From a virus, in IMG/VR virus record IMGVR_UViG_3300014059_000004: DNA of 64,000 nt; one strand, written 5' to 3'. The notes beneath the pieces are model-generated. The model saw nothing but the letters and a program-made list of their open reading frames with translations, searched no databases and was not told the DNA's origin. Both the position numbers and the translations under genes were made by a program. Shown piece after piece: positions 6,872 through 47,563 of this stretch (position 1 is the first letter of the stretch; each line of letters opens with the position of its first letter).

Positions 6872-8494
6872 ATGGCATCAGCTAGCAGCATTAACAACAG
6901 AGAACAGCAGATAAAAGAGATCATGAAGTGTGGCCGCGATCCGGTCTATTTCATGAAGAATTATGCAAAGATCCAGCACGCCACTCGCGGTTTGATCCCG
7001 TTTGAAACTTACCAGTTCCAAGATGATTGCATCAAGGCCTTTGAAGAGCATCGATTCAACATCATCTTGAAGTCTAGACAGTTGGGTTTGTCAACTGTCA
7101 CAGCTGCGTATTGCGTTTGGTTTGCAATCTTCAAGAAGGACAAGAACGTTCTCATCATTGCGACGAAGCTAAGCACGGCAATGAACTTCATCAAGAAAGT
7201 GAAGACAGTTCTTGACGGTCTTCCAAAGTGGCTTGTTCTCACGAAGTTCGCCCCAACGAAGCAGTCAATCCAATTTTCTAACGGTTCGAACATTACTGCA
7301 GTTCCAACATCGCCGGATGCTGGTCGTTCTGAAGCTCTTTCGTTGTTGATCGTTGATGAGGCTGCATTCATCAGAGAATTTGAAGATATCTGGACAGGTC
7401 TATCACCAACGATATCTACTGGTGGATCAGCTATCATCATCTCGACTCCTCATGGTGTTGGTGGTCAGTATTACAAGTTGTGGACAGACGCTGTTGCTTC
7501 AACGAACGAGTTCAATCCGATCAATTTGCCATGGTACGTTCATCCCGAACACGATCAAGCATGGTTTGATAAAGAGACTAGAAACCTATCAAGAAGAAAG
7601 ATTGCGCAAGAGTTCTTGTGTTCGTTCGAATCTTCTGGTGACACGTTTTTGCAACCTGAAGAGCTAGATTACTTGAGGGAGTGCATAGAACAACCAATCA
7701 GAAAAGAAGGACCAGCTGCTGGTGTTTGGATCTGGGGCAACCCAGTGTCTAACAGGAAATACATCATCTCAGCAGACGTTGCTCGAGGCGATGCAACTGA
7801 CTATTCTACGTTCCACGTTATTGACGTTGAAGAGTCTGAAGTTGTTGCAGAGTACATGGGTAAGATACCACCCGATAAATTTGCTGATCTTTTGATGACA
7901 TACGGCCGGCAATACAACGAGGCCGTGTTGATACCAGAGAAGAACACGTTTGGTTACTTTACTTGTGTAAAGCTTCGCGATGCTGGGTACAAGCGATTGT
8001 TCTACAAGAACACAGTCGGTGATCTTTTTAGTTACGTGTCAAAAGATCCAGATGCAGTTCCAGGCTTTGATACGCAAGCCAGTTCAAGGACTCAAATCCT
8101 TGCCAAGCTAGAAGAAACGATCAGAAACAGAGCTATCAAGGTATACTCGCAGAGATTGTTTGATCAGCTGCAAGCGTTCATCTGGAATGGCTCTAAGGCA
8201 ATGGCTTCCAAAGATAGTCATGATGACTTGGTTATCAGCATGGCGATTGGAACTTGGTTTGCTACTGGAGCCACTACTGTCCATGAAGACGGGAAAGAAC
8301 ATGCAGTTGCTATGCTAGCAGCTACTGGTGTTTCGAAGAGAGACATTAGCTCCACGTTCAATCAGATCAGTGCCGTTCAACCAGTGATGAATCCTAACAT
8401 GAGAGGTTTTACGCCGCAAAATGTTCATAAGCCCAGGAATGCATCAGAAGTTCGGCATGCTGACGTTAGTGACTTCAGCTGGCTTATGCGGTAA
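6872..8494 (+). CDS. terminase large subunit (T4 gp17-like)
   Basis: ATPase Walker B LLIVDEAAFI. C-terminal nuclease-domain acidic residues (ISADVARGD..., HDDLVISMA). Located before the portal. Confidence 0.85.
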   Translation: MASASSINNREQQIKEIMKCGRDPVYFMKNYAKIQHATRGLIPFETYQFQDDCIKAFEEHRFNIILKSRQLGLSTVTAAYCVWFAIFKKDKNVLIIATKLSTAMNFIKKVKTVLDGLPKWLVLTKFAPTKQSIQFSNGSNITAVPTSPDAGRSEALSLLIVDEAAFIREFEDIWTGLSPTISTGGSAIIISTPHGVGGQYYKLWTDAVASTNEFNPINLPWYVHPEHDQAWFDKETRNLSRRKIAQEFLCSFESSGDTFLQPEELDYLRECIEQPIRKEGPAAGVWIWGNPVSNRKYIISADVARGDATDYSTFHVIDVEESEVVAEYMGKIPPDKFADLLMTYGRQYNEAVLIPEKNTFGYFTCVKLRDAGYKRLFYKNTVGDLFSYVSKDPDAVPGFDTQASSRTQILAKLEETIRNRAIKVYSQRLFDQLQAFIWNGSKAMASKDSHDDLVISMAIGTWFATGATTVHEDGKEHAVAMLAATGVSKRDISSTFNQISAVQPVMNPNMRGFTPQNVHKPRNASEVRHADVSDFSWLMR

Positions 8495-8524: not shown

Positions 8525-11500
8525 ATGACGATGCAAAAAAAGATCACAATGCCACAATTGAAGAAGATCATTGGAGAAGAACTTCGTCTTTCTTTGAAAG
8601 AAGCTGTCGATCATGCATCGATCAGAGAAGTGGTTAACGATGCAAGCAAGTTGCTTGCAGCTGTTGAAGCGTTCAAGAAGAGTGCCAACGGTAGCATGAT
8701 GAATGCGTTGACTCCTCAAATTTCCGACATTGAGAAGGTTCTAGAGGATATGGTTTCTACGCCTGGCTCATACGTCGAGAAGCAGAAGACCAAGCCTCAG
8801 AAAGTTTCTTTGAAGCCTGCCAAGAGTGGTAAGACGCTATTATCGCTCTTAAGCTTGTTCAAAGTAGTAGTATTAGAACTGCTCCAACAGAATGAAGGAG
8901 CTAACAACATGGCAAAGAAACAAACGAAGCAAAGTCTTTTTAAGCGTCTCACCAGGCTGTTTAAGTCTGGTCCAGTCATAAAGAAGAAGATCAGGAATGC
9001 TGATACTTCTATCGCAGTTGCAGATAAGACTAAGTCGTCTGGAACGTTGCTGTTTCAAAAGTCGTTGGCACCAACGTACGCAACGATCACAGCAAATGCG
9101 TACAACTTGTCAGAACGCCTGATGAGGTATCAAGACTACCAAGAAATGGAGATGTGCATTTCTGGTGACACAAAAATCGCTGTTCCGAACGGTTACAAAA
9201 CAATAAGAGAACTAGCTGAAGAGTGTGAGAATGATCTAGAAAAAACGTTCATTGTTTATTCGTACGATCACAACAAGGGTCAAATTGTTCCTGCACTTGG
9301 AAAACAAGCTAGACAAACATCTGTTGATCATGCATGGAAAGTAACATTTGACAGCGGGTTGTCTATTACTACTAGCGCTGGTCATAGATTGATGCTTCGT
9401 GATGGTACGTATCGAAAACTTGAAGAACTTCAAGTTGGAGATTCGATGATGCCATTTTATCGAAAAGACTTGTTTTCGAATGAAAATAATGAAAATTCGT
9501 CAAGTGGCGGTTATTCATGGATTTACACCATGGATAGTACGCACAAAAGCTGGACTAGAGAACATGTTCTAATTGCAGAATGGGTGTCTGGTCGACGATT
9601 GACAAAAGATGAATGTGTGCATCACATAAACTTTGTTAGATCAGACAACAGGCCTGAAAATCTGTTGATCATGAATAAGTTCGAACACAGTTCTTACCAT
9701 GCAAAAATCAATAACGAAAAAAAGTGGCACGTTAACAACAAAGAATGGATTGACAAATTTAAGAAAACACATTCTGAATGGATGAAAGTTAACAATCCCG
9801 CCGAAAGAAGAGATGTAACTTTTGGACGAATTCTAGAAACGTGCGAAAAGATCGGATTCAATCAATCTGCGGTATGTTCTGCACTTGATGTAAGTGTAAC
9901 GGTTATTCAAAATCGTTTGAAGAAACACGGTTTTTCTAGTTTCGAATTGTTTGCAAAAACATACTGCAATGATTGGAAAAATAGCGGTTGGAATAATTCT
10001 GGTGAGAATAACCCACGCTTTGATAAAACCTTGACGTTTGCATGCATTTGTAACGCATACACAAATGACATGTCAGCAAAGAAACTAGCTGACATGTTGG
10101 GTACTACAGTTACAAAGATCATGAATCGAATTAGAACTGCCGGCTACAAAAATTATTCTGATTTTTCAGCTCAGTTCACTAACCATAAAATTGAATCAAT
10201 CGAGTACGTTGGTGTCATTCCTCTGTATGATCTTACTGTTGATGGCTACAAAAATTTTGCAACTGATTCGGTTGTTTCACACAATACTCCGGAAATAAGC
10301 TCGGCGCTTGACATCTATGCTGATGAAACTGTCGCGGCAGATGAAAAAGGTCGTGCTCTTCACATCTACTCAGACAATGAAAGAGTAAAAGAGATCCTTG
10401 AAGATCTTTTTTATGGTACGTTGAATCTCGAATTTAACCTTCGTTCTTGGGCAAGAAATCTTGTGAAATACGGTGATTTCTTTCTCTACAACGACGTTTC
10501 AGATGATTACGGTGTTGTTTCAGCGTTTCCAATTCCAGTCAATGAAATTGAGCGTGAAGAGAACTATGACAGAGAAGATCCGTTTGCCGTTCGTTACAGG
10601 TGGGTCACTCTTGGCAATCGAATCCTAGAGAATTGGGAAGTTTCTCACTTCCGTCTCTTGGGTAACGACATGTTCTTGCCATACGGTTCTTCAGTCATTG
10701 AACCTGCGCGCCGGATTTGGCGACAGCTTATTTTGATTGAAGACGCAATGCTTGTGTACAGAGTCGTGAGAGCGCCTGAGCGCCGCGTCTTTTACATTGA
10801 CGTGGGTAACATCCCTGCAAGTGAAGTAGAGCTATACGTCGAGCAGCAAAGAAAGAAGCTTAGGACGAATCAAGTCATCGACTCGAACACTGGGCGAGTT
10901 GACTTGCGCTATAATCCAATGTCTGTTGATGAGGATTATCTCATGCCGGTCCGCGGTGCAGAATCTGGAACGAAGATAGAAACACTTGCAGGCGGACAGA
11001 ACACTGCAGCAGTTGAAGACGTAGCATACATCCAGAAAAAGCTATTTGCGGCGCTGAAAATTCCTCGTGCATACTTGGGTTACGATGAGGCGCTATGCCT
11101 GGATCAGTCAACTTCTATCCCACTTTACGATGGTCGGACATTGACAATAGAAGAAATAGCGACTGAGTTTAACGCTGGAAAACAGAACTGGACATACACG
11201 ATCGATTCATCAGGCAAACATGTTCCTGGAAAAATTATCGATGCATGGAAGACAAAAGACGTTACTGAACTTTATCATGTGACTCTTGATAATGGTCATG
11301 TTGTCAAGTGCACAGCAAATCATCCATTCATGCTTAGAGATGGCACGTATCGTCGAGCAGATGAATTGAAGAAGGATGACAGTCTGATGCCAGTTTATAG
11401 AAAGTTTTCGTCAAAGTCTGATGGTGATTTTCAGAATGGCTATGAAAAAATTCTGAACAATAATACTGGACGTTGGGAATATACACATCGTCTAGCAAAC

Positions 11501-13318
11501 GAAGCTGGACTAGTTACTGATCATGCATCACGTGATCTTGAGAGATCATATGTAATTCATCATATCGATCATGATAAACGAAATAACAATCCAACAAATT
11601 TGATCAAGATGGGCAAGCGTGCTCATATTTTGCATCATTCTAGCGGTGCACGTGCTAATTTGTTGTCAAACACTGCTCGCGTCGCTCTTCGTGAAACAAT
11701 GAAGACGCAAAAGTACATCGATGATCATCTTAAAGGCGTTCAGAACAGCTGGGATAATTCAATCACGAGAAGAAATTCAATTGCTGTATCAAATTCACAA
11801 CAAAAACGTGTGAATATTTCAATCGAATCATTTAATGAATTGGCACTTAAATGTAGTGCAAGATCAGAATTTTATAAGCGTCTTAAGAGCGATTTGAACG
11901 TTAGTCGTACGTGCTTTGTTAACAACTTGTCTAGATCAACAATTGACGTTCGAACGTGGTTGTCATCTCATTTTGGTGTTATTAAGCATCGTGGAAATAG
12001 TAAGAAACTTAACTTCAATTTGCAAGACTTGATTGATGAATGCGTTAAACACAAAATTCGTAGCATAACTGAGTGGAGGCGTTGTAAGGATGTTTCGGTT
12101 AGTGGGCATGTTGTTAAACGAGTTTTGAATAACGCAGGGTACAAAGATTTTGCTAGCTTTGCAAAAACGTTGAATCATCAAATTGTTAACGTCGAACTAG
12201 TAAAACTAGACGAACCGCGAGCCGTCTATGATTTGACGATTGAGGGAAATCATAATTTTGCCATTGAAGCTTCAGAGTCAGAATGTAGCGATGACAGCTT
12301 GTCAAGTATGATTGTTGTTCACAACAGTTCAAAGGCAACGCTAGCCCAAGAAGATATCAGATTTTCCAGGACAATCTCAGTAATCCAGAAAACAATCATC
12401 TCTGAGCTTAATAAGCTAGCGATCATTCACCTATATGCTCATGGTTTTGACGGAGAGGATCTGCAGAATTTTACTCTTCGTCTTTCGAATCCTTCTACTG
12501 TTGCACAGCAGCAGAAGCTTGAGTTGTGGAGAGCAAAGTTTGAGATCGCTGGTTCTGCACCAGAAGGTTTTGTTGACAAGAACTTCATAAGAAAAGAAAT
12601 TTGGGGTCTTAACGAAGAGCAGTGCAAAGCTATCGATGACGCTCGTTTGAAAGATAAGATCGTTGATTCAACGATTGAGGGTGCTGCAGCTGGAGAAGCC
12701 GGAGCTGGCGGAGGTGATGCTGGCGTTGATGATCTATTTGGCGGCGACAACGGCGGAGAAGCAACTGGTGGAGAGGAAGCTGGGGGCGGAGGCGGAGAAG
12801 AAACACCACCTGAAGAAAATGCAGGCGAGGAACCAGAAGAAGAGGTTGAACCAGACGTTGAGCTTCTAACTTCAGCAGATTCTTTTGATGATGAAGTCTT
12901 TGGGTTGAAGGTTGGAAATTCTGTCAGAGACGTGGAAGTACCTGTGAAAGCGCAGAAGCAGCTTGACAGAGTGCTATACAATCGTGGTCGCTTGAGGACT
13001 CACGGAGCATCAAAGACGTTCATGCCAGATCTTGAGAAGATGACGTCAAATGATGAGCACGAATCGTTGAACGATCCTTTCGATTCTAATTGGATGAAAT
13101 CTGTGGTTAGCAATCCATTCGGTGAGAGCAGACAACACGAAAGACCAATAATGACGTCAGATATGATGTCTATTCTTCGAAATTGGTCTGTTACCAAGCG
13201 AGTCAATCGTGCCACCGCCACAGCGCAAAAGGTGATCACAGAATCGAATGATGACCTTGATGTGACTGTTGAATTCGACGAAGTATTTAATGATGACGAA
13301 CCAGGAGAGCAAGAGTAA
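8525..13318 (+). CDS. portal protein (T4 gp20-like) interrupted by two inteins; exteins about 810 aa
   Basis: Extein segments LIEDAMLVYRVVRAPERRVFYIDVGNIPA and ...DEDYLMPVRGAESGTKIETLAGG...AALKIPRAYLGYDE match T4 gp20 ([28 protein letters not shown] / ...[23 protein letters not shown]...). An alternative strong start lies at 8909 (AGGAG N9 ATG, MAKKQTKQSLFKRL, cf. gp20 N-terminus). Confidence 0.85.
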   Translation: MTMQKKITMPQLKKIIGEELRLSLKEAVDHASIREVVNDASKLLAAVEAFKKSANGSMMNALTPQISDIEKVLEDMVSTPGSYVEKQKTKPQKVSLKPAKSGKTLLSLLSLFKVVVLELLQQNEGANNMAKKQTKQSLFKRLTRLFKSGPVIKKKIRNADTSIAVADKTKSSGTLLFQKSLAPTYATITANAYNLSERLMRYQDYQEMEMCISGDTKIAVPNGYKTIRELAEECENDLEKTFIVYSYDHNKGQIVPALGKQARQTSVDHAWKVTFDSGLSITTSAGHRLMLRDGTYRKLEELQVGDSMMPFYRKDLFSNENNENSSSGGYSWIYTMDSTHKSWTREHVLIAEWVSGRRLTKDECVHHINFVRSDNRPENLLIMNKFEHSSYHAKINNEKKWHVNNKEWIDKFKKTHSEWMKVNNPAERRDVTFGRILETCEKIGFNQSAVCSALDVSVTVIQNRLKKHGFSSFELFAKTYCNDWKNSGWNNSGENNPRFDKTLTFACICNAYTNDMSAKKLADMLGTTVTKIMNRIRTAGYKNYSDFSAQFTNHKIESIEYVGVIPLYDLTVDGYKNFATDSVVSHNTPEISSALDIYADETVAADEKGRALHIYSDNERVKEILEDLFYGTLNLEFNLRSWARNLVKYGDFFLYNDVSDDYGVVSAFPIPVNEIEREENYDREDPFAVRYRWVTLGNRILENWEVSHFRLLGNDMFLPYGSSVIEPARRIWRQLILIEDAMLVYRVVRAPERRVFYIDVGNIPASEVELYVEQQRKKLRTNQVIDSNTGRVDLRYNPMSVDEDYLMPVRGAESGTKIETLAGGQNTAAVEDVAYIQKKLFAALKIPRAYLGYDEALCLDQSTSIPLYDGRTLTIEEIATEFNAGKQNWTYTIDSSGKHVPGKIIDAWKTKDVTELYHVTLDNGHVVKCTANHPFMLRDGTYRRADELKKDDSLMPVYRKFSSKSDGDFQNGYEKILNNNTGRWEYTHRLANEAGLVTDHASRDLERSYVIHHIDHDKRNNNPTNLIKMGKRAHILHHSSGARANLLSNTARVALRETMKTQKYIDDHLKGVQNSWDNSITRRNSIAVSNSQQKRVNISIESFNELALKCSARSEFYKRLKSDLNVSRTCFVNNLSRSTIDVRTWLSSHFGVIKHRGNSKKLNFNLQDLIDECVKHKIRSITEWRRCKDVSVSGHVVKRVLNNAGYKDFASFAKTLNHQIVNVELVKLDEPRAVYDLTIEGNHNFAIEASESECSDDSLSSMIVVHNSSKATLAQEDIRFSRTISVIQKTIISELNKLAIIHLYAHGFDGEDLQNFTLRLSNPSTVAQQQKLELWRAKFEIAGSAPEGFVDKNFIRKEIWGLNEEQCKAIDDARLKDKIVDSTIEGAAAGEAGAGGGDAGVDDLFGGDNGGEATGGEEAGGGGGEETPPEENAGEEPEEEVEPDVELLTSADSFDDEVFGLKVGNSVRDVEVPVKAQKQLDRVLYNRGRLRTHGASKTFMPDLEKMTSNDEHESLNDPFDSNWMKSVVSNPFGESRQHERPIMTSDMMSILRNWSVTKRVNRATATAQKVITESNDDLDVTVEFDEVFNDDEPGEQE
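9155..10285 (+). mobile_element. intein 1 (377 aa) with an HNH endonuclease domain, in the portal gene
   Basis: Starts at Cys in block A CISGDTKIAV; block B TSAGHRLM. Ends VYDLTVDGYKNFATDSVVSHN followed by the +1 Thr. Internal HNH motif HHINFVRSDNRPENL...H. In-frame length 1131 nt. Confidence 0.8.
11096..12325 (+). mobile_element. intein 2 (410 aa) with an HNH endonuclease domain, paralogous to intein 1
   Basis: Starts at Cys in CLDQSTSIPL; block B TANHPFML. Ends VYDLTIEGNHNFAI...IVVHN followed by the +1 Ser. HNH motif HHIDHDKRNNNPTNL...H. Shares LRDGTYR(K/R)..EL..(G/D)DS(M/L)MP.YRK with intein 1. Confidence 0.75.
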
Positions 13319-13319
13319 C

Positions 13320-14189
13320 ATGTCCAAGCAGTTGACACATAAGAAGAAGAGAAATTCAGGTTTGCTCTATGAATTTCTGATTCGAACGATCTCGCGCTCT
13401 CTCGTCGAAGGCGATCAAAAGAAGTCAGCGACAGCACTAAAGATTTTGAAGCGCAGCTTCAAGCCTGGCACTGAACTGTACAAGGAGTTCAGGCTCATCA
13501 ATTCGCTCGTTCGTACGACAGTTAGTTCGGAACATGTTGCTGCATCGATCATAAATGAAGCTAAAGTAGCTGCTGGTTCGTACGATTTGAAAGCTCTTGA
13601 CAAAGAGAAGTCCATCCTGATCAAGAACATCAATCATCTTATCAATGATGAAAATTTTTATGATCAACAAGTTAACGAGTACAAAGTTTACGCTACAGTG
13701 CAGACGTTGATCAACGAATGGCGATCATCTGACAAAGACATCGGAAAGCTCGCTGAGTACGAAGATCAGCTAATGAAATGGTTGACAACGGAAAAGAAAG
13801 AGCAAGAAGATAGCGTCATCAACGAGGAATCGCCGGGCACTGCCCGGCTGATGATGAAGGTCATGACCAAGAAGTTGAACGAGAAGTACTCGGGCGTCTT
13901 GAATGCTGACCAGAAGTCTTTGATGAAAGCTTACATCTTCTCAACAGCATCCAGCGATCCAACGGTTATTCAGAAGAAGCTAGCAGAGATCAAGGATTCT
14001 CTTCTTCAGAAGATCGATGCTTACTCAAAGATTGAAAAGAACAAGCTTATAAGCGAAAAGTTGTCGAATACGACGCAGCAATTGCTTACAGAAGATCTAA
14101 GCAACGTTGATGACTCTACGGTCACGCGCTTCATGCTTTACGCTAAGCTAGGATCAGAACTTGACCAAGAAGATGGGGATGAAAGATGA
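13320..14189 (+). CDS. hypothetical prohead core/scaffold-associated protein
   Basis: The ATG at 13320 is 1 nt after the portal stop, with GGAG upstream. Lies between portal and prohead protease, as do T4 gp67/gp68. Confidence 0.45.
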   Translation: MSKQLTHKKKRNSGLLYEFLIRTISRSLVEGDQKKSATALKILKRSFKPGTELYKEFRLINSLVRTTVSSEHVAASIINEAKVAAGSYDLKALDKEKSILIKNINHLINDENFYDQQVNEYKVYATVQTLINEWRSSDKDIGKLAEYEDQLMKWLTTEKKEQEDSVINEESPGTARLMMKVMTKKLNEKYSGVLNADQKSLMKAYIFSTASSDPTVIQKKLAEIKDSLLQKIDAYSKIEKNKLISEKLSNTTQQLLTEDLSNVDDSTVTRFMLYAKLGSELDQEDGDER

Positions 14190-14809
14190 AAGAGCAACGG
14201 TTGCTAAGCACGTACGACGTGCATGATTATGAAGTGATCACCGAAGTCAGCGACAAGCCGACAGGCCCTGTCAAGAAGATCATGATGAAGGGAATCCTTC
14301 AGAAAGCTGATACGCTAAATCAGAACGGTAGAATCTACCCAAAGTACGTTCTCGAGCGTGAAGTAAGAAACTACCAAAAGTTCATCCTCGAGAATAGGGC
14401 TCTAGGAGAACTAGACCACCCAGATTCATCAGTTGTTAACTTGAAGAACGTTTCTCACATCGTTAGAGAAGCTTACATGGAAGATGGTACTGTGTACGGA
14501 ACAGTTGAGATCCTTGACACGCCGTCTGGAAAAGTTTTGCAATCACTAGTTGAGTCAAAGGTGAAGCTTGGAATCTCCTCGCGAGGCGTCGGTTCAACTG
14601 CAAAGAAGGGTGATTATTACGAGGTTCAAGACGACTTTCAGCTTATCTGCTGGGACTATGTATCGGAACCATCAACTCCCGGAGCTTTCATGATTCCTGA
14701 AGGTAAAAAGATAACGCAAGCTGAACTAAATAAGGTCTTTAATAGATCTGATCGAATTGACAGGATCTTGAACGAAATTCTCAAGAAGTTATGCCAACTG
14801 GGTCTATAA
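14186..14809 (+). CDS. prohead core protease (T4 gp21-like)
   Basis: ATGA overlap with the upstream gene. NGRIYP...LGELDHPDSS...GTVEILDTPSGK...KLGISSRGVGS resembles the conserved His/Ser blocks of prohead proteases. Position between portal and scaffold/MCP. Confidence 0.7.
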   Translation: MKEQRLLSTYDVHDYEVITEVSDKPTGPVKKIMMKGILQKADTLNQNGRIYPKYVLEREVRNYQKFILENRALGELDHPDSSVVNLKNVSHIVREAYMEDGTVYGTVEILDTPSGKVLQSLVESKVKLGISSRGVGSTAKKGDYYEVQDDFQLICWDYVSEPSTPGAFMIPEGKKITQAELNKVFNRSDRIDRILNEILKKLCQLGL

Positions 14810-15585
14810 AGTTTATTTCTGCTAATTGTAAGCGATGTGGCACATCATTTAGTTATCGTTACAAAGCTAGCAAACGATCTCAAGTATTTTGCAGTCGGTC
14901 TTGTTCGAACAAAGAAGTGAAGCGAAATCGTTCTGAAAAAGATCTATTGTCTTCTTGGACTAAGACAATTGGTTCAGAAGCTGCAGATGAAAAACTTCAA
15001 CGTTTGAAGTTGTCAAAGAGTGAATCTGCAACAAGAAATAACACTGGCAAGAATCATTCAGACATCACAAAGAGAAAGATTTCTGAATCTTGCCAAGGAA
15101 ACAAAAACGTTTTGAAGGGACGAACATATCTTGAGTATTATGGTCCGGATCGAGCAAAACAATTGTCTGAAGAGCATTCAAGAAAATTGAAAGAAGGTTA
15201 TGCTTCTGGAAGAATCAAGCCTTCTGTTCGAACGAAATCAGCACCAGCATACAAGAATGTCAAGCTAAGAAGCATGCTTGAACTCAGAGTTATTCGTTTT
15301 CTAGAAGAGAGCGAAAATTTGTGCTTTAATGATTCATTGTTTTACGAGCATCCGGATGCTCATGTAACTTGGCATGATTCCACGGGTGCTGGTCACACTT
15401 ACATTCCAGATCTTTACGTACCAAGTGCAGAACTTGTGATTGAGGTTAAGCCTCAACGATTTGTTGACAGTCCGACTGAAGAAATGATGAAGAAGAAAGA
15501 TGCAGTTCTTCGTGAAGGATATAAATTTGAATACTACACAGAAAGAACGATAACATGTCGCTTAACAATCCAAAAGGCGGCCTAG
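14791..15585 (+). CDS. free-standing homing endonuclease (Zn-ribbon + NUMOD3-like repeats + PD-(D/E)XK nuclease)
   Basis: CKRCG...CSRSC zinc ribbon. HSDITKRKISES and EEHSRKLKEGYASG are NUMOD3-like. C-terminal YIPDLYVP..LVIEVKP is PD-(D/E)XK. Confidence 0.6.
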   Translation: MPTGSIKFISANCKRCGTSFSYRYKASKRSQVFCSRSCSNKEVKRNRSEKDLLSSWTKTIGSEAADEKLQRLKLSKSESATRNNTGKNHSDITKRKISESCQGNKNVLKGRTYLEYYGPDRAKQLSEEHSRKLKEGYASGRIKPSVRTKSAPAYKNVKLRSMLELRVIRFLEESENLCFNDSLFYEHPDAHVTWHDSTGAGHTYIPDLYVPSAELVIEVKPQRFVDSPTEEMMKKKDAVLREGYKFEYYTERTITCRLTIQKAA

Positions 15586-15986
15586 GATACGCTGCTGAAT
15601 TTCAATCATCGGCGCTTCCATGGGTAACAAGCAGCCAAGTTCCCGTTGTAACGTCTGGAATTCTACGTTGTGACTTTCCTAAAGTCAGTAGGTTCGTAAC
15701 TGTTTTGAATAATGCTAGTGCTTCAGCCGGTCAAGAAGTTCGAATCGGATTCACTAGGAATGGAATGACAGCTGGTTACTACAGCGTTCTAGCAGGTGGT
15801 CAGCAGACGACGATGGAAGTTAGAGTCACTAGCCTCTACATTGCTGGTGACACCAGCAACAATCTTCGAGTTTCTGTTCTTGCTGGTCTGACTAACATTG
15901 ATAAGTCAATGATGCCTCAACTGTCAGGAACACTTGATTCGGGCGACGTTGGTTGGTCTGGCGTCGGTTTACAAGAGGAAATTTAA
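15555..15986 (+). CDS. hypothetical protein
   Basis: ORF in the head module. TAATG overlap with def. Confidence 0.4.
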   Translation: MSLNNPKGGLGYAAEFQSSALPWVTSSQVPVVTSGILRCDFPKVSRFVTVLNNASASAGQEVRIGFTRNGMTAGYYSVLAGGQQTTMEVRVTSLYIAGDTSNNLRVSVLAGLTNIDKSMMPQLSGTLDSGDVGWSGVGLQEEI

Positions 15987-16480
15987 TGGAACTAGTCAAA
16001 ATACCTGATGATCGTTTGCGGTTCTTGTCCGGACCGGTTGACAAGTTCGATCGTTCGCTTCAAGAGCTATCAACTAGCATGAAATTGGTGATGGCTGTCA
16101 ATGGCGGCGTCGGCCTAGCTGCACCTCAAGTTGGTGTCAACAAGAGGGTCATAGTTGTCAACGTAGCGCCTGGTAGCAGCACACCAGACTTGATCACCAT
16201 GGTGAATCCAGTCATAGTGTACTCTTCAAGCTCGCAAGAAGCCGGCGAAGAGGGTTGCTTGTCTGTTCCGGGTGAACGATGCACCGTGACACGCGCAAAA
16301 TCTGTTGAAGTCGAATACAGAGAACCGAATGGGTTCTTCAAGAAGAAGATCTTCACTGGCTACGTTGCTAGAATTGTGCAGCACGAGATAGACCATTTGG
16401 ACGGTGTCTTGATGATCGATCGCTCAGCAACCCCTCTAGAAGCACACACGAGGGCACAAGAATATATTTCGGCTCACTGA
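15986..16480 (+). CDS. def: peptide deformylase
   Basis: All three PDF motifs are present: GVGLAAPQVG, EGCLSVPG and QHEIDHLDG. Length 164 aa. AGGA RBS 8 nt upstream of the ATG. Confidence 0.9.
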   Translation: MELVKIPDDRLRFLSGPVDKFDRSLQELSTSMKLVMAVNGGVGLAAPQVGVNKRVIVVNVAPGSSTPDLITMVNPVIVYSSSSQEAGEEGCLSVPGERCTVTRAKSVEVEYREPNGFFKKKIFTGYVARIVQHEIDHLDGVLMIDRSATPLEAHTRAQEYISAH

Positions 16481-16495: not shown

Positions 16496-16969
16496 ATGAA
16501 TTCACCGAATAAAATCTCGAGGTCACAGCTTAAGCAGCTGGTGAAAGAGTGCCTTGTTGAGATCTTGCAAGAAGGTCTTGGTTCCCCACTAGCACCATCA
16601 ACACCAGCTTACGCTCAGCAAGAAAGGCTTCCTCTTCGAGCAGAAGTGACAAACAGAAAGCCTGCAGCACAGCAGAAAAGAATTTCTCCGCTTGACATGC
16701 CAGCAACGAACCATGGGCTGTCGCAAGATATCAGAGAGGCAATCAAGAGAGAAGTTGCTGGATCACCAAACAAGAGTGTCATGTCAGAAATTTTTGCTGA
16801 CACTGCCAATCGTACACTACCTGGTTTGATGTCTGATGGCGGCGGTGACCAGCATCGTCCGACGTTGCAAGAGCAATTCCACGGAACGCCAGAAGAGATA
16901 TTTGGTGAAGAAGCATCTTCAAAGTGGGCTGAGCTAGCATTTGCATCGCCGGTAAAGAAAATTTCGTAA
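16496..16969 (+). CDS. hypothetical protein with a CTS-like N-terminal leader
   Basis: N-terminal ISRSQLKQLVKECLVEILQE leader motif, shared with four other proteins. Confidence 0.5.
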   Translation: MNSPNKISRSQLKQLVKECLVEILQEGLGSPLAPSTPAYAQQERLPLRAEVTNRKPAAQQKRISPLDMPATNHGLSQDIREAIKREVAGSPNKSVMSEIFADTANRTLPGLMSDGGGDQHRPTLQEQFHGTPEEIFGEEASSKWAELAFASPVKKIS

Positions 16970-17012
16970 TCGTTGTGAGAGATACTATTTAGTCGTAAGC
17001 ACAGGTAAGAAG

Positions 17013-17270
17013 ATGAAGCTAACAACGCAACTACTCAAGTCAATCATTGAAGAAGAAGTTTCTAAGTTCGGTTCTGGAGAAACAACAGAAGACCGAGCTG
17101 ATGACACGGAAGAAGTCGATGCTGACGAATTCGCAGATTCGCTAGAGAAGAAGATTGACTATGCTAAGGCGCTGAAGATCGAAGAAACTCGTCTTCGCCG
17201 TAGGCTAAGCAAGATTGTCGAAGCGAGAGCTCGGGTTAAGCAGCTCATCGCTAAGTCGATCTTAAGATAA
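17013..17270 (+). CDS. hypothetical acidic protein with a CTS-like N-terminal leader
   Basis: N-terminal LTTQLLKSIIEEEV leader motif. Confidence 0.5.
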   Translation: MKLTTQLLKSIIEEEVSKFGSGETTEDRADDTEEVDADEFADSLEKKIDYAKALKIEETRLRRRLSKIVEARARVKQLIAKSILR

Positions 17271-17924: not shown

Positions 17925-19811
17925 ATGTCAAAGGAACTTTACGAAGAAGCACTAGCTGATGCAAAGAAGCTAAGAGAGGTCGCAGAAGACGATGCTAAGC
18001 GTTCTGTTCTAGAAGCTGTCACCCCTCGCATCAGAGAGCTGATCGAGCGTCAATTGCTAACTGAGTCTTTTGATGATGAGGAAGAATTTCTACCTGCAGC
18101 AGCAGTTCCTGCTGTTGGTGATGCTGGATCAGTTGCTGCCGCAATGTCCCCTCCGGACGTTGATGGTAAAGTAACGCTCGATCTAGATGCGCTGTCTGTT
18201 GATAGCGGAACGCCAGTTGAGCAGCCGATGTTCGGTGCTCCTGCGCCAGGCGCTGATAACGTTGAGTACGAGCTGAGCTATGAATCAGTTGCTGCTCTAT
18301 CACCAGTTATTAACGCTACTAAGTCCAATCTCGGTAAGGAGCTTGAATCTAGCTTGTACCGTTTGGGAGAGTCTATTGAGCAATTTGCATCAGCTGGAAA
18401 GCTCGTGAGAGAATCCAAGGGTTATGCAAGCAAAATCGCTCAAATGATTTCTCGTGTAGAGAATATGTATGACTACGTGCAGGAATCAGTGTCTGATCCT
18501 GCAATGAAGAGTTCATACGAAATCAAGCTAGAGAATTACTTTAGAGAACTCAACAAGCTCCGGGAGCGAAAGATGTCGAAGAAAAGCCTAAAAGATCTGA
18601 TGAATGAAGGTGATGTTACCCTTAAGCTCACTGGCTTGCCAGATGAGATTGATCTCGACTCAGTTGGAGTCGATCTTGTCACCGGTGAAGACGAAGAAGG
18701 TTCTTCGGATGATCTTGGCGGCGAAGGCGGAGATGATCTAGATCTCGGTGGAGATGAGGGTGGCGAAGGTGGTGAAGGCGGCGATGACGTCGGCCTTGAC
18801 GATCTTGGACTCGGTGGAGATGATGAAGAGGCAAAGATGGAATCACGCAAGCTAAGCGATGACACGATCGTTGAGATTGACACGAACATGCTTCGTAGAG
18901 AGATCTCTCGCTTGAAGCGCATGCATGAAGATGCGGTTCCTTCAGCAGACGGCAACGGTGCTGATGCTGTTCTTGATCAGTTCGGCGACGGCAAGTCAGA
19001 GGGCGACCCATGGCTTGACGGTGAAGTTACGACCGAAGCCGAAGAGTCAGATGACGAAGATAGCCTCGAGGAAGCTGACGGTCCAGACGGCGATCTCACT
19101 ATGGATGAGACCGACGACGTCATGGAGATGGATGGCCTGGCACAGCTTGGCAATCGTCGCTCGAAGGACGAGAATGGCAATGCAGTTGCTGATTCTCACG
19201 AGACTCCGATGGAGTCGCTAAAGCGTAGAGTTTCTTTTGAGAAGCGTCTGCAGGAGCGTGCAAAGGCACGTGGAGCAGCTCTTCGCAAGGAAGCACGTGT
19301 TGCAGCTGCTAAGAAGCAGCATGGAAAGGTTGCATCCCTTAAGAAGGAATACGATGCAGCTGCACGTAGGTTCACCGAGTCAGTGAATCGTCAGAAGAAG
19401 ATTATGAGAACGCTAGCGGAAGCTACTTCTCGCAAGGGTGCAACCGTCAATGGTTCATCGAAACAGCCTGCGGAGCGAATGGCTGAAGCAAATCTCCGTA
19501 AAGAGTTGGCAGCTACGAATCTGTTCAACGCGAAGCTAGTTTACACTAACAAGCTACTTCAAAATGAGTCACTGTCTAAGAAGCAGAAGTCTGAAGTTAT
19601 CAAGCGCCTTGACGAGGCCAACAGCCTCCGTGAAGTTAAGCTTGTGTACGAGAGCCTCTCGAAGGCTCTTGCTGGAACGTCCAGGCCAATCAAGGAGAGC
19701 GCTGATCGCAAGGTCGTCGGTTCTTCATCAAGGGTCACTCGTCCAGCATCGACGACAACGCTCAATGAAGGATCGGATCTTGATAGGTGGGCGAAGCTCG
19801 CTGGACTCTGA
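17925..19811 (+). CDS. prohead scaffolding protein (gp22-like), acidic, with (D/E)GG repeats
   Basis: Coiled-coil/acidic composition. Low-complexity SSDDLGGEGGDDLDLGGDEGGEGGEGGDD. Located immediately upstream of the major capsid protein. Confidence 0.6.
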   Translation: MSKELYEEALADAKKLREVAEDDAKRSVLEAVTPRIRELIERQLLTESFDDEEEFLPAAAVPAVGDAGSVAAAMSPPDVDGKVTLDLDALSVDSGTPVEQPMFGAPAPGADNVEYELSYESVAALSPVINATKSNLGKELESSLYRLGESIEQFASAGKLVRESKGYASKIAQMISRVENMYDYVQESVSDPAMKSSYEIKLENYFRELNKLRERKMSKKSLKDLMNEGDVTLKLTGLPDEIDLDSVGVDLVTGEDEEGSSDDLGGEGGDDLDLGGDEGGEGGEGGDDVGLDDLGLGGDDEEAKMESRKLSDDTIVEIDTNMLRREISRLKRMHEDAVPSADGNGADAVLDQFGDGKSEGDPWLDGEVTTEAEESDDEDSLEEADGPDGDLTMDETDDVMEMDGLAQLGNRRSKDENGNAVADSHETPMESLKRRVSFEKRLQERAKARGAALRKEARVAAAKKQHGKVASLKKEYDAAARRFTESVNRQKKIMRTLAEATSRKGATVNGSSKQPAERMAEANLRKELAATNLFNAKLVYTNKLLQNESLSKKQKSEVIKRLDEANSLREVKLVYESLSKALAGTSRPIKESADRKVVGSSSRVTRPASTTTLNEGSDLDRWAKLAGL

Positions 19812-19841: not shown

Positions 19842-21752
19842 ATGGAGAATAAAATGAAGTTTTCACTTGATCAGCTAACACAAGGTATTCGCGAAAAGCA
19901 CGTTGGTGCGGAGCGAGCACGTCTTGTTGAGAAGTGGGCGCGCACCGGTCTTCTGAGGAACCTGGATGGCAATCGTCGCGAGATGATGTCCCAGCTTCTC
20001 GAGAACCAGGCGGCTCAGGTTCTTAAGGAGAACGTTTCTCTTTCCACTGGCGGCGGCGCAGTTACGTCGTCCGGTCAGATCCAGGGCTTCTCGAACATTG
20101 CATTCCCAATCGTTCGTCGAGTCTTCGGTGGCCTTGTTGCGAACGAGCTCGTCTCGATCCAGCCAATGTCGCTGCCATCTGGTCTCATCTTCTACCTCGA
20201 TTACACCTACGGCTCGAACGTCGGCGGCGAGGCAGGCGCAAGCTTGAGCAACACCTCAACGTTTGAGACGTACCAGCGCGGTCAGTCGATCTACAACAAC
20301 CCACCAGGCAAGGGCATTCAGTCCGGTTCTCTTGCGACGGGTGGTATGTACGATCTTGTCAACGTCGGTTACTCGAAGGTTCACTCTTCGTCGCTCGGCG
20401 TCTCCGGATCGAACCTCGATCTCGGTGCATGGACGGGTGCTTCGCAAGCATGGACCGTCGGTGGTGCAGTTCGCAGCGACACGGACCTTTCTGGTTCGAA
20501 CGCCCGCTTCTTGAACTTCGATCCACAGATCGAGAACGCACTGGCACAGGGCGACCTGGACCTCACGTTCTTGCACCTCTCGGTGTCCGCACTGCAGACT
20601 GCAATTCCAAAGGGTGACTTCTTGGCACCAGAGCAGATCGCAATCTTCGGATTCACTGCTGCGAACAACGTTTCTGAGTGGGGTGAGTCATACCAGTCGG
20701 GCAAGGGTCTCTACAACCTCCGCCGCCTTAACAAGCGCGGTGATTGGAACGGCTCAACGTTCACGCTGAACCCGCTGAACGGAACGTACATCCAGATGGT
20801 TCTGAAGCTTACCAACGGTGGATCAGTTCCAACGATGGGTACGGCTGTCCAGAAGGTCTCGATGGCAATCACTGATGCACTCACCGTTGATTCAACGTCA
20901 GGTGCTACGCTGACTGTCCCATCCTTCGAGTCTGACTTTGGTTCATCGCCAACGCCAGCAATCCCAGAGATTGACATCAAGATCGAGGCGATCTCGATCA
21001 CTGCAACGACCCGCAAGCTCCGCGCTCGCTGGTCCCCAGAGCTTGCGCAGGATCTCAATGCGTACCACTCGATGGACGCTGAGGTTGAGCTGACGAGCAT
21101 CCTTTCTGAGAACATTGCCCTTGAGATTGATCGCGAGATCCTCAACGACCTTGTCACTCAGGCAAACGGTGCAAACTACTACTGGAGCCGAGCTCCAGGC
21201 AAGTTTGTTAACAAGGTCACCGGCGACAGGCAGAACCTCGCGAGCTCGCTCTCGATCGGTCCTCAGTTCACTGGTACGGTTCGCGAGTGGTATGAGACTC
21301 TCATCGAGACGATCATCGACGTGGCGAACACGATCCACCGCAAGACGCTTCGCGGATCAGCTAACTTCATGGTCACTGGACCAGATGTTTGCACGATCCT
21401 GGAGAGCTCGGTGCTCTACAAGCCAAAGTACACGCTCGACAGCGAAGGCCAAGTTGGTTCTCCGTTCACGGTCGGTGCAGAGGCGATCGGTACTGTTTCC
21501 AACAGGTTCACTGTCTACAAGGATCCTTACTTCCCAAGGAACAAGGTTCTTGTCGGCTACAAGGGCGGTTCCTACCTTGAGACTGGATACGTATACGCTC
21601 CGTACGTTCCACTCATCGTGACCCCAACGCTGTTCGCACCTGAAGACTTCACGCCACGTAAGGGTGTCATGACCCGTTACGGCAAGAAGATGGTCAGGAC
21701 GGACTTCTATGGCACTGTGACGGTCATGGACATGAATGTGATTTTACGTTAG
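19842..21752 (+). CDS. major capsid protein (T4 gp23-like)
   Basis: FPIVRRVFGGLVANELVSIQPMSLPSGLIFYLDYTYG resembles gp23 AVMGMVRRAIPNLIAFDICGVQPMNSPTGQVFALRAVYG. RWSPELAQDLNAYHSMDAEVELTSILSENIALEIDREI resembles AAYSIELAQDLRAVHGMDADAELSGILATEIMLEINREV. The C-terminal GYKGG...YVYAPYVPL block also matches. An alternative start at 19854 has a GGAG RBS. Confidence 0.9.
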   Translation: MENKMKFSLDQLTQGIREKHVGAERARLVEKWARTGLLRNLDGNRREMMSQLLENQAAQVLKENVSLSTGGGAVTSSGQIQGFSNIAFPIVRRVFGGLVANELVSIQPMSLPSGLIFYLDYTYGSNVGGEAGASLSNTSTFETYQRGQSIYNNPPGKGIQSGSLATGGMYDLVNVGYSKVHSSSLGVSGSNLDLGAWTGASQAWTVGGAVRSDTDLSGSNARFLNFDPQIENALAQGDLDLTFLHLSVSALQTAIPKGDFLAPEQIAIFGFTAANNVSEWGESYQSGKGLYNLRRLNKRGDWNGSTFTLNPLNGTYIQMVLKLTNGGSVPTMGTAVQKVSMAITDALTVDSTSGATLTVPSFESDFGSSPTPAIPEIDIKIEAISITATTRKLRARWSPELAQDLNAYHSMDAEVELTSILSENIALEIDREILNDLVTQANGANYYWSRAPGKFVNKVTGDRQNLASSLSIGPQFTGTVREWYETLIETIIDVANTIHRKTLRGSANFMVTGPDVCTILESSVLYKPKYTLDSEGQVGSPFTVGAEAIGTVSNRFTVYKDPYFPRNKVLVGYKGGSYLETGYVYAPYVPLIVTPTLFAPEDFTPRKGVMTRYGKKMVRTDFYGTVTVMDMNVILR

Positions 21753-21764
21753 ATAAAGTTTGAG

Positions 21765-21796
21765 TGCCCTGCTTCAAAACAGGGCATTCGCTTTTC
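21765..21796 (+). terminator. rho-independent terminator after the major capsid gene
   Basis: Stem TGCCCTG / CAGGGCA with an 8-nt loop, followed by TTCGCTTTTCTC. Confidence 0.6.
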
Positions 21797-21838
21797 TCGA
21801 TTAGTATACATTTATCTCTAACGGATGAAGATCATTTG

Positions 21839-22642
21839 ATGGATAATACATGCAAAGAGTGCAATGAGGTCTTCAACAGTTCTGAACAGGTGAGGCGTCA
21901 CCTGCGCAAGCACGCGATGAATGCACAGGAATATTCGTTGAAGTGGGACTACAATAACGTCATTCCGAAGTGTGCGTGTGGATGTGGTCTGAAGACATCG
22001 TGGCATATAGCGTCAAAAAACTTTACGAAATTTGTTCATGGTCATCATGCGTGGGGGAGAAAGAAGACAGAAGATGAAAAACGGCGCATTGGTGAAAAGA
22101 ACAGCGTCAATATGAAACGTTACATGGTTGAAAATCCTGACGTAGCACGTTCAAGGGTTGAAGCACTTCGTTTTGGGCGAATACCAGATGTTTATAAACG
22201 TGTGTCAGAATCGGTTCGTCGTTTCTGGTCTTCTGGCTCTGATTTGGCAAAACAACGTCGAAAAGAAGCTTCAGATCGAGCTATCGTGCTTCTCGAGCAA
22301 GGAAAGATTGGTCCGCATGCACCGTTCAAAGCGTGCTGGTTTGAGAACCCATTCACTGGCAAAGAAGAACGAATGCATTCATCTTGGGAAACTTCGTTCT
22401 TGAGCAAGTGCATTACTGAAGGTTACCCAGTCACAAAGCAACACGATCTTAGGATTCCTTATGTTGCTAACGATGGAACTGATCATGTATACGTGCCAGA
22501 TTTCATTGCGCTTGAAGAAAAAGTTGTGTTTGAGATCAAGGGTTTGATGAGAGAAAATGACGATCTTAAGCTTCAGGCTTTGAATGCTTGGGCTGAAAGA
22601 AATGGTTATGAAGTTGTCATCATTGTTGATACCTCAACGTAA
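21839..22642 (+). CDS. free-standing homing endonuclease (C2H2 Zn finger + CxCGCG + NUMOD-like + PD-(D/E)XK)
   Basis: CKECNEVFNSSEQVRRHLRKH, KCACGCG and WGRKKTEDEKRRIGEKNS. C-terminal YVPDFIAL..VFEIKG. The first ATG is at 21839; the ORF track begins at an upstream GTG inside the terminator. Confidence 0.6.
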   Translation: MDNTCKECNEVFNSSEQVRRHLRKHAMNAQEYSLKWDYNNVIPKCACGCGLKTSWHIASKNFTKFVHGHHAWGRKKTEDEKRRIGEKNSVNMKRYMVENPDVARSRVEALRFGRIPDVYKRVSESVRRFWSSGSDLAKQRRKEASDRAIVLLEQGKIGPHAPFKACWFENPFTGKEERMHSSWETSFLSKCITEGYPVTKQHDLRIPYVANDGTDHVYVPDFIALEEKVVFEIKGLMRENDDLKLQALNAWAERNGYEVVIIVDTST

Positions 22643-27208: not shown

Positions 27209-28987
27209 ATGAGAGTCCTACGTTCTAACCTGTCTGGAGATGACGTAAAGTCCTGGCAGACGTTCTTGAGAGGATTGAATCCATCGTCCTCTCTCATCGT
27301 CACAGGTACGTTTGATCCTCCTACGTACTCAGCGACAGTAGCGTTCCAGAGAGCGACCGGGCTTCAGGCTGATGGTGTCGTTGGGACTAGAACGCTCGGC
27401 AAGGCAATGAGCCTAGGGTTCAACTGCCTAGAAGACGTATCAACTGATAAGTCAAGTTCGTGCTGGCCGCCGCAGCCGCTAGAACCTTCTCTTTCACCAA
27501 GCGAAAGAGAGAAGATGTTTGGCAGCTTTGCGTACGTTCCTGTGCCAGTTGCTGGAAATCCTGAAGCTATCAAGATAACTGACGGATGGTCGATGAAGAA
27601 CATCGTTGGCGTGCAAACTCCAACGTTGAACCATCTCAACGTCAATGCTGTCCAGTTCAACAAGCTAGCAGCTGATCAATTTCTGAACCTGCTCCAGGCT
27701 TGGGATGATGCTGGAATGTCAAGGCTGATACTCTCGTGGGGCGGCACTTGGTCGCCACGATTCATTCGTGGCAGCAGAACCGTTCTTTCAAACCACGCAT
27801 GGGGAACAGCATTTGACATCAACGTTCAATGTAACATGCTTGGGGCTGAACCAGCGCTCGTTGGGTCAGTTGGTTCTGTCCGTGAACTAGTTGATATCGC
27901 ATCTGCTAATGGTTTTTACTGGGGTGGTTGGTTCGGCTACAAGAAAGGTGGCCGAGCGGACGGGATGCACTTCGAAATTTGCAAATTGCTGTTAACGTTG
28001 GAGACACAGATGGCTGGTAGAATTAAATCGAAAAACAAAGAATGGTATCATGAATCGAATTACTCTAGAGAACCTAGCAGCGCTCGAGTGGGCATGATGA
28101 CCAACGGAGAAGAGGCTGACGGGGATGAAGAGTTGCAGGAGACTATCACGTTGTCAGTGAACGAACTTCGACAGATCATTAAGGAAGAAGTTTCAAGCAG
28201 CTTTGTGTCTGGCTTGAAAGCTGCAACAGTTGATCAGATATCTTCAAAGTGGCCAAAGTTCGTGGAGTACTTGAAGGGAAAGTTTGGCGAGATGCTTGGC
28301 AAGGCAAAGTTCGCAGTGAAGGGCTCTGGTATGCTCAGCAAAGGCACCCCGTTTGTGTTGCTCCCAGATTCTAGCAGGACTGTCATATTTTGGGATAACG
28401 TCGGACCGAAATACAATACATCTGATACCGTTGCTCAAGCTATCGGTAAATTGAGTGCATTATCAGATGAAGCAGTCCTAGCCTCTTGCGAGGTGTTATA
28501 TTTCTACACGACGTTGAGGCTTATTTTAAGAATGACTGCGAACAGAGTCATTGATGAACATAGTGAACTAAGTGGTGTTGGGTCATTGACCCATGACCAG
28601 CTTGATGCTTATGTTAACACTAGCCCGTACGTCATTGTATCAGGCGCAGTTGGGTCTGTTCCACCCGGCGCTAGGAAGCTTGTTGCTGGTCCGGGTGTCA
28701 CGATAACAGATGGTGGTGCCGGTGGTGACCTGATAGTGTCTGTCACTTCTGTGACGACCGGTTCAACCGTGCAGTGGATGGAGAGACCGTCGGGACTGGC
28801 TGATGGCTCGAACATGACATTTAACCTAACACGTGCACCAGTACCCGGGACTGCTTTGATGTTCTACGTTAACGGATTGTTGCAAGAGCAAGGCTCAGAT
28901 TCAGACTACACGCTCTCTGGTTCCGTGATATCGATGTTGTATCCGTACAGATCCGGCAGTAACATCAGAGCTACTTATCCTTACTGA
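27209..28987 (+). CDS. peptidoglycan hydrolase: PG_binding_1 domain + M15 zinc peptidase, fused to a C-terminal tail-fibre-like domain
   Basis: N-terminal DVKSWQTFL...TVAFQRATGLQADGVVGTRTLGKA (PG-binding). M15 signature SNHAWGTAFD plus DGMHFE. C-terminal GVTITDGGAGGDLIVSV is shared with the ORF at 31502. Confidence 0.7.
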   Translation: MRVLRSNLSGDDVKSWQTFLRGLNPSSSLIVTGTFDPPTYSATVAFQRATGLQADGVVGTRTLGKAMSLGFNCLEDVSTDKSSSCWPPQPLEPSLSPSEREKMFGSFAYVPVPVAGNPEAIKITDGWSMKNIVGVQTPTLNHLNVNAVQFNKLAADQFLNLLQAWDDAGMSRLILSWGGTWSPRFIRGSRTVLSNHAWGTAFDINVQCNMLGAEPALVGSVGSVRELVDIASANGFYWGGWFGYKKGGRADGMHFEICKLLLTLETQMAGRIKSKNKEWYHESNYSREPSSARVGMMTNGEEADGDEELQETITLSVNELRQIIKEEVSSSFVSGLKAATVDQISSKWPKFVEYLKGKFGEMLGKAKFAVKGSGMLSKGTPFVLLPDSSRTVIFWDNVGPKYNTSDTVAQAIGKLSALSDEAVLASCEVLYFYTTLRLILRMTANRVIDEHSELSGVGSLTHDQLDAYVNTSPYVIVSGAVGSVPPGARKLVAGPGVTITDGGAGGDLIVSVTSVTTGSTVQWMERPSGLADGSNMTFNLTRAPVPGTALMFYVNGLLQEQGSDSDYTLSGSVISMLYPYRSGSNIRATYPY

Positions 28988-44414: not shown

Positions 44415-44442
44415 ATTGATACTTACACTGCAGAGGCATAGG

Positions 44443-47527: not shown

Positions 47528-47563
47528 AAACGCTCGGATTGTTCATCCGAGCGTTTGTTTGTT
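47528..47563 (+). terminator. rho-independent terminator after sheath copy 2
   Basis: 12-bp stem AAACGCTCGGAT-tgttc-ATCCGAGCGTTT followed by GTTTGTTT. Confidence 0.65.

Follow-up and report, generated by a model that had tools for sequence, protein, structure and literature searches.

A conserved N-terminal leader on unrelated proteins of an uncultured T4-like myophage, a candidate capsid-targeting sequence

Why should proteins of a single phage that otherwise have nothing in common begin with the same short peptide? The question is raised by a 64-kb stretch of DNA (46% G+C) from the IMG/VR record IMGVR_UViG_3300014059_000004, hereafter called the window, which comes from an uncultured T4-like myophage. 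Two neighbouring small genes of its head module, at nt 16496-16969 and 17013-17270 (here w16496 and w17013), encode such a leader, and further copies are found elsewhere in the window. The original prediction, made from the DNA letters alone, held that five proteins share the leader and that it is a capsid-targeting signal cleaved by a gp21-like protease. We consider it reasonably probable that the leader is a functional analogue, distinct in sequence, of the capsid-targeting sequence (CTS) of phage T4, loading proteins into the head before being removed by the prohead protease.

The leader and the proteins that carry it

All five N-terminal peptides quoted in the original prediction are present in the window, in the open reading frames (ORFs) starting at nt 1860 (ITEARLRKIIEEEL), 8525 (ITMPQLKKIIGEEL), 16496 (ISRSQLKQLVKECLVEILQE), 17013 (LTTQLLKSIIEEEV) and 48429 (ITESQLRKLIKEVLKEE), and in each of them the leader begins within residues 3-10. 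The five DNA copies encode the conserved residues (Leu, Ile, Lys, Arg and Glu) with differing synonymous codons; the leader is therefore not a DNA repeat, and selection acts on the peptide. No mutual similarity was found among the window carriers outside the leader. A hidden Markov model (HMM) built from the five N-termini scores its own members at 21-25 bits and identifies a sixth copy, internal to the ORF at nt 27209-28987 (nt 28151-28192, LSVNELRQIIKEEV; 10.8 bits), the next-ranked six-frame match in the window reaching 6.6 bits. An independent HMM, built solely from other IMG/VR contigs found with a DNA pattern, gives 25.4 bits for the copy at 17013, 23.9 for 48429, 22.5 for 16496, 16.7 for 1860, 14.6 for the internal copy in 27209 and 7.2 for the copy in the ORF at 8525 (leader at nt 8543). 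The highest decoy score with this model, over 21 reversed or shuffled copies of the six-frame proteome of the window, is 9.8 bits. The five predicted carriers are thus all real, but five is an undercount, given the sixth, internal copy and the approximately 21 leader ORFs of a single related 484-kb genome.

Across related loci the consensus is M-K-[LI]-T-x-x-x-L-[KR]-x-I-[IV]-x-E-[EC]-[LVI], 16 residues long (leader sequence: MKITKSQLKQIIKEEL). Counted within the leader, L6, I9, [IV]10 and E12 are nearly invariant, with the Glu present in 149 of 152 unique sites. The hydrophobic residues are spaced in a heptad-like manner, and the leader is a portable, N-terminal amphipathic helix. A tblastn search of 50,697 phage records with a 22-residue consensus leader returned one weak match only, the query being too short for BLAST.

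The two neighbouring genes from which the question arose are both on the plus strand. The protein w16496 has 157 residues, with its leader core at nt 16514-16561 (ISRSQLKQLVKECLVE) and the helix reaching approximately nt 16582. It has 119 metagenomic homologues and no match in Pfam, and the family alignment shows invariant leader residues Lys13, Lys17, Glu18, Cys19, Leu20, Glu22, Leu24 and Gly27. In the AlphaFold2 (AF2) model, residues 9-29 form a helix with a predicted local distance difference test (pLDDT) value of about 95, while the remainder is largely disordered (predicted template modelling score, pTM, 0.21); the middle part is disordered and variable. Two further elements stand out in the family alignment: PE..FG....SKWA.LAF, strongly conserved at the very C-terminus, and ILADTA.TTL in the central region; the shell or the portal might be bound by the C-terminal tail. 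The smaller and acidic w17013, of 85 residues, carries its leader at nt 17019-17066 (LTTQLLKSIIEEEVSK), right after the initial Met-Lys.

Outside the head module, w1854 (nt 1860-2837, plus strand) is a conserved protein of 325 residues, from a family without annotation, in which the leader (nt 1884-1931, ITEARLRKIIEEELVR) follows a short basic extension. It has 102 homologues at 37-65% identity and one at 99%, and in most of them the leader is kept. The protein is all-helical (AF2 pTM 0.70), and its leader helix, residues 11-29, is not packed against the body of the model. A fold search with this model against the PDB and BFVD gave no match below E = 0.01; all that it returned were generic helical bundles. 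Its C-terminal half had been described as hydrophobic and membrane-like; there are indeed two conserved Gly/Ala-rich hydrophobic segments, but just one of them passes a Kyte-Doolittle threshold of 1.6. The small protein w48429 (113 residues, nt 48429-48770, plus strand) has its leader directly after Met-Lys, at nt 48435-48482 (ITESQLRKLIKEVLKE). The carrier of the internal copy, w27209 (592 residues, plus strand), consists of PG_binding_1 and Peptidase_M15_4 domains, then the leader, then a C-terminal part of 260 residues. A ribosome-binding site was looked for before an internal Met near residue 295, and none was seen. In IMG/VR, one near-identical relative of w27209 only was found, 98% identical, on the 104-kb contig IMGVR_UViG_3300033121_002020, which shows that IMG/VR holds the genome of the window or a near-twin of it.

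The remaining copy, at nt 8543-8590 (ITMPQLKKIIGEELRL), had been taken for an N-terminal extension of the portal protein, and this assignment had to be given up. It belongs to a gene of its own, which we call gene X (nt 8525-8908, plus strand; about 105 residues in relatives). In approximately 60 related contigs, X is a separate gene of 100-110 residues between the large terminase gene (terL) and the portal gene, encoding the leader, then DHASIREVV...LTPH...STPGSYV and ending in ...KKVSLKPxK and a stop codon. Among 62 homologous stretches in related loci, almost all of them small separate ORFs of approximately 100-170 residues with two of 298, none is joined to the portal; in one relative (L003) an intergenic spacer of about 75 nt follows the stop of X. 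The window has no in-frame stop in the X-portal spacer, and one frame runs on to the portal ATG at nt 8909. The T4-type portal gene (nt 8909-13318, plus strand; Pfam Portal_T4, Intein_splicing and HNH_3) retains its own start, MAKKQTKQSLFKRLTRLF, and its own ribosome-binding site, GAAGGAG, 8 nt upstream of that ATG. Its product is without a leader, and the portals of relatives begin with MAKKxxxSLF(K/R)RLT. Because X is separate in the relatives and the portal keeps its own start, the leader is assigned to gene X, and the gene calls should be corrected to annotate X and the portal as two genes. The missing stop could be a real fusion by read-through from X into the portal, or an assembly error. 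A candidate relationship of X to the N-terminus of the gp22-like scaffolding protein, as a paralogue, was rejected (BLASTP E = 2.1, hhalign probability 12%).

Distribution among viruses and association with head genes

For a wider survey, 80 related IMG/VR loci (1.1 Mb) were collected with the prohead protease of the window as query; 347 relatives exist, on contigs of up to 309 kb. The motif HMM finds 174 matches of at least 9 bits in the 80 loci, all on the coding strand; 164 of them lie no more than 40 residues from an upstream stop codon, and an initiator Met-Lys directly precedes the motif in 118. The leader is kept in orthologues of w16496 in 71 of these loci, of w17013 in 56 and of gene X in 32. 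The search of phage sequences with a motif HMM that had been suggested with the original prediction thus recovers the leader in many related contigs.

Viral and cellular sequences were also compared with a degenerate DNA pattern for the consensus, which carries about 41 bits and for which we estimate less than one chance match. In IMG/VR it retrieves more than 120 stretches among the matches listed, many with two to seven leader ORFs, of about 100 residues in the median. From bacterial and archaeal genomes (596 Gb, 185,579 species) it retrieves only 17 stretches, all on contigs of metagenome-assembled genomes (MAGs). Several of these contigs contain multiple hits, such as NHDW01000006.1 (305,838 bp, binned as Methylococcaceae TMED69) and PBIO01000025.1 (101 kb, Halobacteriovorax), and contigs of Peribacter UBA6535 are also among the large multi-hit ones. 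The MAG contigs with the pattern (L204-L220) are probably phage genomes that were mis-binned. Abundant in viral contigs and virtually absent from cellular genomes, the leader is viral and not a generic helical start.

Among viruses it is limited to one, very large clade, as the original prediction had supposed in calling it lineage-specific. The head regions of T4, cyanophage P-SSM2, Ralstonia phage RsoM2USA, LR756511 (595 kb) and Mel-JY01 contain no match of at least 8 bits. By protein similarity, no cultured phages are nearer than Microcystis phage Mel-JY01 and Flavobacterium phage immuto, whose capsid proteins are 33-45% identical to that of the window and whose portals are 42-44% identical to the portal of a marine member of the clade (L102). 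The latter phage has two leader copies, a clear one in immuto_190 (MKKSQLRQIIKEAL) and a degenerate one in immuto_198 (MKKSQIVKAVQEVLEE), which lies beside the protease. In the searched literature, motif strings such as LKQIIKEE gave no match, and a concept-level search led only to work on T4, P1 and phiKZ-like phages, with no description of such a leader in this clade.

The genes that encode leaders cluster with head genes, and all of the computed context speaks for a role in head assembly or packaging. A search with the leader alone gave 79 short loci; terL is present in 26 of them, the portal gene in 22 and an S77 protease homologous to that of the window in 16. Ten loci were inspected and show a recurrent order: terL, portal, a homologue of the window gene w13269, leader ORFs, protease, leader ORFs, a homologue of w15555, scaffold and capsid. 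Leader ORFs adjoin the protease gene on both sides, and the three most conserved carrier families (X, w16496 and w17013) are located between terL and the capsid gene. In the T4 map, the genes for gp67 and gp68 occupy the equivalent place, between portal and protease.

The same arrangement was mapped over the whole genome of the uncultured phage LR756508.1 (484 kb, reassembled in full), the sole DNA-level relative of the window among the 50,697 phage records. Approximately 21 of its ORFs have an N-terminal leader; they share one strand, and 20 fall within 143.6-243.4 kb. Its head genes are located at 141.9 kb (terL), 145.8 kb (portal), 156.5 kb (protease), 170.1 kb (scaffold) and 171.9 kb (capsid), with leader ORFs in three intervals, from terL to portal, from the w13269 homologue to the protease and from protease to scaffold.

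What follows the leader is highly diverse. All related sequence together (2.3 Mb) contains 573 sites of at least 12 bits, of which 524 (91%) are N-terminal. BLAST clustering of what comes behind the leader gives 285 clusters, and 255 of these are singletons. The cluster representatives have a median length of 96 residues and, in 187 of the 285, an isoelectric point below 6. A Pfam scan of 45 cluster representatives, chosen from the 94 of at least 125 residues, matched a pentapeptide-repeat protein, a PAP2 phosphatase, a GNAT acetyltransferase, a PRiA4_ORF3-like protein and DUF6745, and no other families; the pentapeptide-repeat family includes DNA mimics. One protein of 465 residues (in locus L169) has three leader copies. 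As some ORFs hold two or three copies, the leader helix is not strictly N-terminal. ORFs with several copies also occur in loci L100, L176, L218, L154 and L180, and some copies are internal or C-terminal (for example ITKEDIQKIIQEEV and ITKEDIQKMVQEEL).

A putative cleavage site and a possible route into the head

The presumed processing enzyme is encoded at nt 14186-14809 (plus strand). Its predicted identity as a gp21-like (S77) prohead protease was borne out by a match to Pfam PF03420 (E = 8.3e-25) and by alignment with the T4 gp21 structure (PDB 5JBL, E = 4.6e-17), the His (GELDHP) and Ser (SSRGVGS) motifs being kept. T4 gp23 is cut after L-T-E, at a place comparable to the presumed maturation site of the window capsid protein, Q-V-L-K-E (residues 59-63 of the ORF at nt 19842-21752, encoded by nt 20016-20030 of the plus strand). 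The capsid proteins of related loci have the Glu of this site in 58 of 58 cases and a nearly invariant Q-[VL]-L-K-E, followed by Ser, Ala or Asn and, shortly afterwards, by the Gly-rich beginning of the mature domain. The commonest leader core, Q-I-I-K-E, resembles it, and this likeness in sequence supports the view that the leader may be processed by the same protease. T4 gp21 cleaves after L/I-x-E, and the T4 CTS terminates in I-A-E (PMC9026906), as is also seen in the IPII and IPIII sequences that we inspected. By sequence, [IV]10-x-E12 of the leader is a gp21-type motif at a fixed and nearly invariant position. The (I/L)-x-E tripeptides to which the original prediction had pointed are weak evidence by themselves; the fixed position and the likeness to the capsid site are what give them weight.

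The internal proteins of T-even phages share a conserved CTS only (PMC3012670; PMC9026906). Like this T4 sequence, which is MKTYQEFIAE in IPI, IPII and IPIII, cut after the final Glu, and which also has a counterpart in the Alt propeptide, the leader is a short N-terminal peptide that starts with Met-Lys, has a Thr at position 3 or 4, contains hydrophobic targeting residues and ends in I-x-E. Both are found on otherwise unrelated, fast-evolving proteins, in genomes with a gp21 (S77) protease and a gp22-like scaffold. In contrast to the T4 CTS, the leader is about one helical turn longer (16-20 residues), is also present on conserved head-module genes and has some internal copies, and a genome may have up to approximately 21 carriers, versus a handful in T4. 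The proteins w17013 and w16496 hold a place comparable to that of T4 gp67 and gp68, which are small, acidic, helical or disordered and processed by gp21, in that they too are encoded by small genes adjoining the protease gene, within the block from portal to capsid; w17013 in particular resembles gp67 in its size, acidic stretch and protease-adjacent position. Unlike the leader proteins, T4 gp67 and gp68 are without the leader, and a search for homology to them gave no PHROGs or Pfam match for w16496 or w17013.

Experimental proof of capsid-targeting leaders exists, to our knowledge, for very few phages, namely for the internal proteins of T4 and for DarB of P1. Phages of the phiKZ group cleave at S/A/G-x-E, and we know of no single shared N-terminal leader described for them; they also differ from the leader clade in capsid lineage and genome organisation. 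In these giant phages, a diverged gp21-type protease cuts many proteins of the head interior after Glu, and their propeptides contain redundant sites, as in phiKZ gp175, SPN3US gp245 and 201phi2-1 (PMC9026906; PMC5694885, PMC10052503). An N-terminal signal of P1 DarB is enough to carry a heterologous protein into the head of a myophage (PMC9024508). Unlike the leader, this signal is known on a single protein, and P1 apparently has no separate scaffolding system. Outside phages, the cargo-loading peptides of encapsulins are short conserved terminal tags that bring diverse cargo into a shell of the HK97 fold; compared with the leader, they are usually C-terminal, are not removed by proteolysis, belong to cellular nanocompartments and are unrelated in sequence.

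From sequence, gene position and analogy with these systems we infer a route of core binding, packaging, cleavage and ejection. During prohead assembly, a carrier would attach to the scaffolding core through its leader helix, which would either bind the gp22-like protein encoded at nt 17925-19811 or bundle with the copies of the helix on X, w16496 and w17013, and the carrier would become enclosed as the capsid shell closes. The gp21-type protease might then cut at [IV]-x-E inside the leader, freeing the mature proteins into the head, and some of them may be ejected with the DNA. The gp22-like protein (628 residues, plus strand), the presumed docking partner or core matrix, is acidic and coiled-coil-like, and its gene lies directly upstream of the capsid gene. 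It has no match in PHROG or Pfam, and the N-termini of its homologues in relatives, immuto (immuto_203) and Mel-JY01 resemble that of T4 gp22. X, w16496 and w17013 would probably be core components themselves, and the variable carriers would be cargo.

Several observations weigh against a role as a CTS analogue. The leader HMM matches none of T4 IPII, IPIII, gp20, gp67, gp68, gp21, gp22, gp23 and gp24, which places the leader outside the T4 CTS family by sequence and agrees with the difference from the T4 CTS that the original prediction had remarked on. I-x-E is common in charged helices, so cleavage at this one is no better than plausible. Two carrier genes are outside the head module, w1854 between the genes for primase and for SbcD of SbcCD, and w48429 between those for tail sheath and tail tube. 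The cargo is mostly acidic, as opposed to the basic internal proteins of T4. No close cultured relative with the conserved leader families was found, nor a virion proteome for the nearest cultured phages in the searched literature. About 9% of leader copies are internal or repeated within one protein, which fits a general interaction helix better than a strict N-terminal signal.

This last point leads to the main rival explanation, in which the helix is a permanent coiled-coil module for assembly or oligomerisation, in the core or in another virion sub-assembly, and stays uncut. We regard it as unlikely, though it deserves more weight than any other alternative, considering the heptad-like spacing, the confidently predicted helix and the internal and repeated copies; moreover, the leader is the most conserved part of w16496, which is unusual for a disposable signal. 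Yet the T4 CTS is also conserved despite being removed (PMC9026906), and a permanent module does not readily account for E12 and [IV]-x-E being constant across hundreds of unrelated carriers and resembling the conserved capsid site. The placement of w48429 and w1854, the two hydrophobic Gly-rich segments of the latter and the peptidoglycan-hydrolase domains of w27209 would fit a leader directed elsewhere than the head interior, be it to the membrane, the tail or baseplate, or a replication compartment. Such a destination is possible for w1854 and w48429 but improbable for the leader in general, as its three most conserved families lie between terL and capsid, leader genes flank the protease in many genomes, and the helix is highly charged with an invariant Glu, unlike a Sec, Tat or membrane-anchor signal.

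The last alternative gives the leader no targeting role and makes it a generic charged or coiled-coil start, or a nucleotide-level feature of translation initiation. The leader is indeed rich in Lys, Glu, Ile and Leu, like many helices, and the A-rich codons after the ATG could favour initiation; the original prediction had itself listed a common coiled-coil start among the outcomes that would speak against it. There is also one weak Pfam match to RelB_like_antitoxin (E = 0.0016, below the cut-off), which was rejected as a chance match, since it does not recur in nine other leader proteins. This explanation is largely refuted, and we give it hardly any credence: the pattern is virtually absent from the cellular genomes while abundant in viral contigs, the residues are held over at least 16 positions while synonymous codons vary, and decoys fall short of the observed scores.

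If the leader is indeed an analogue of the T4 CTS, its 16-residue pattern would predict head-packaged, and possibly injected, proteins in a widespread, uncultured clade of environmental metagenomes, and the CTS principle would reach well beyond the T-even phages, with a different sequence. More tentatively, and with the balance tilting slightly against it, the leader may be a clade-wide address label, by which about 20 proteins per genome are loaded into the capsid and delivered with the DNA, in phages including ones of 300-480 kb. Hundreds of unrelated small proteins, mostly acidic and with no known relatives, would then be candidate early-acting effectors and candidate anti-defence proteins, although an anti-defence role of leader proteins is speculation. 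The leader would also offer a new, second and sequence-independent tag for loading foreign proteins into capsids.

Other genes around the head module

The head module of the window further includes terL (nt 6872-8494) and the T4-type major capsid gene at nt 19842-21752 (phrog_138). The portal gene is interrupted by two inteins, at nt 9155-10285 and approximately 11120-12265. The first extends from Cys211 to Asn587 of the long ORF and contains an HNH endonuclease domain; at its insertion point, intein-free relatives have an uninterrupted ...YQDFQEMEY-TPEIAAALDIY.

A peptide deformylase gene (nt 15953-16480) is located inside the head-morphogenesis block, between the protease and leader genes. 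Its position is not conserved: LR756508.1 has its deformylase gene at 95.5 kb, well away from the head genes, approximately 60 kb from the protease gene and 46 kb upstream of terL, and only two of the 79 loci found by the leader contain a deformylase. A functional link between deformylase and leader was therefore dropped.

Downstream, the window encodes two tail-sheath paralogues, both phrog_23, at nt 40501-43515 (1004 residues) and 44416-47514 (1032 residues), with a homing-endonuclease gene between them, as well as a tail tube protein and many homing endonucleases. Besides the two portal inteins, the structural region is dense in homing-endonuclease-like genes (NUMOD3, GIY-YIG-like and HNH), which are located at nt 14791-15585, 21764-22642, 43553-44338, 47555-48415, 48833-50620 (minus strand) and 51286-52947.

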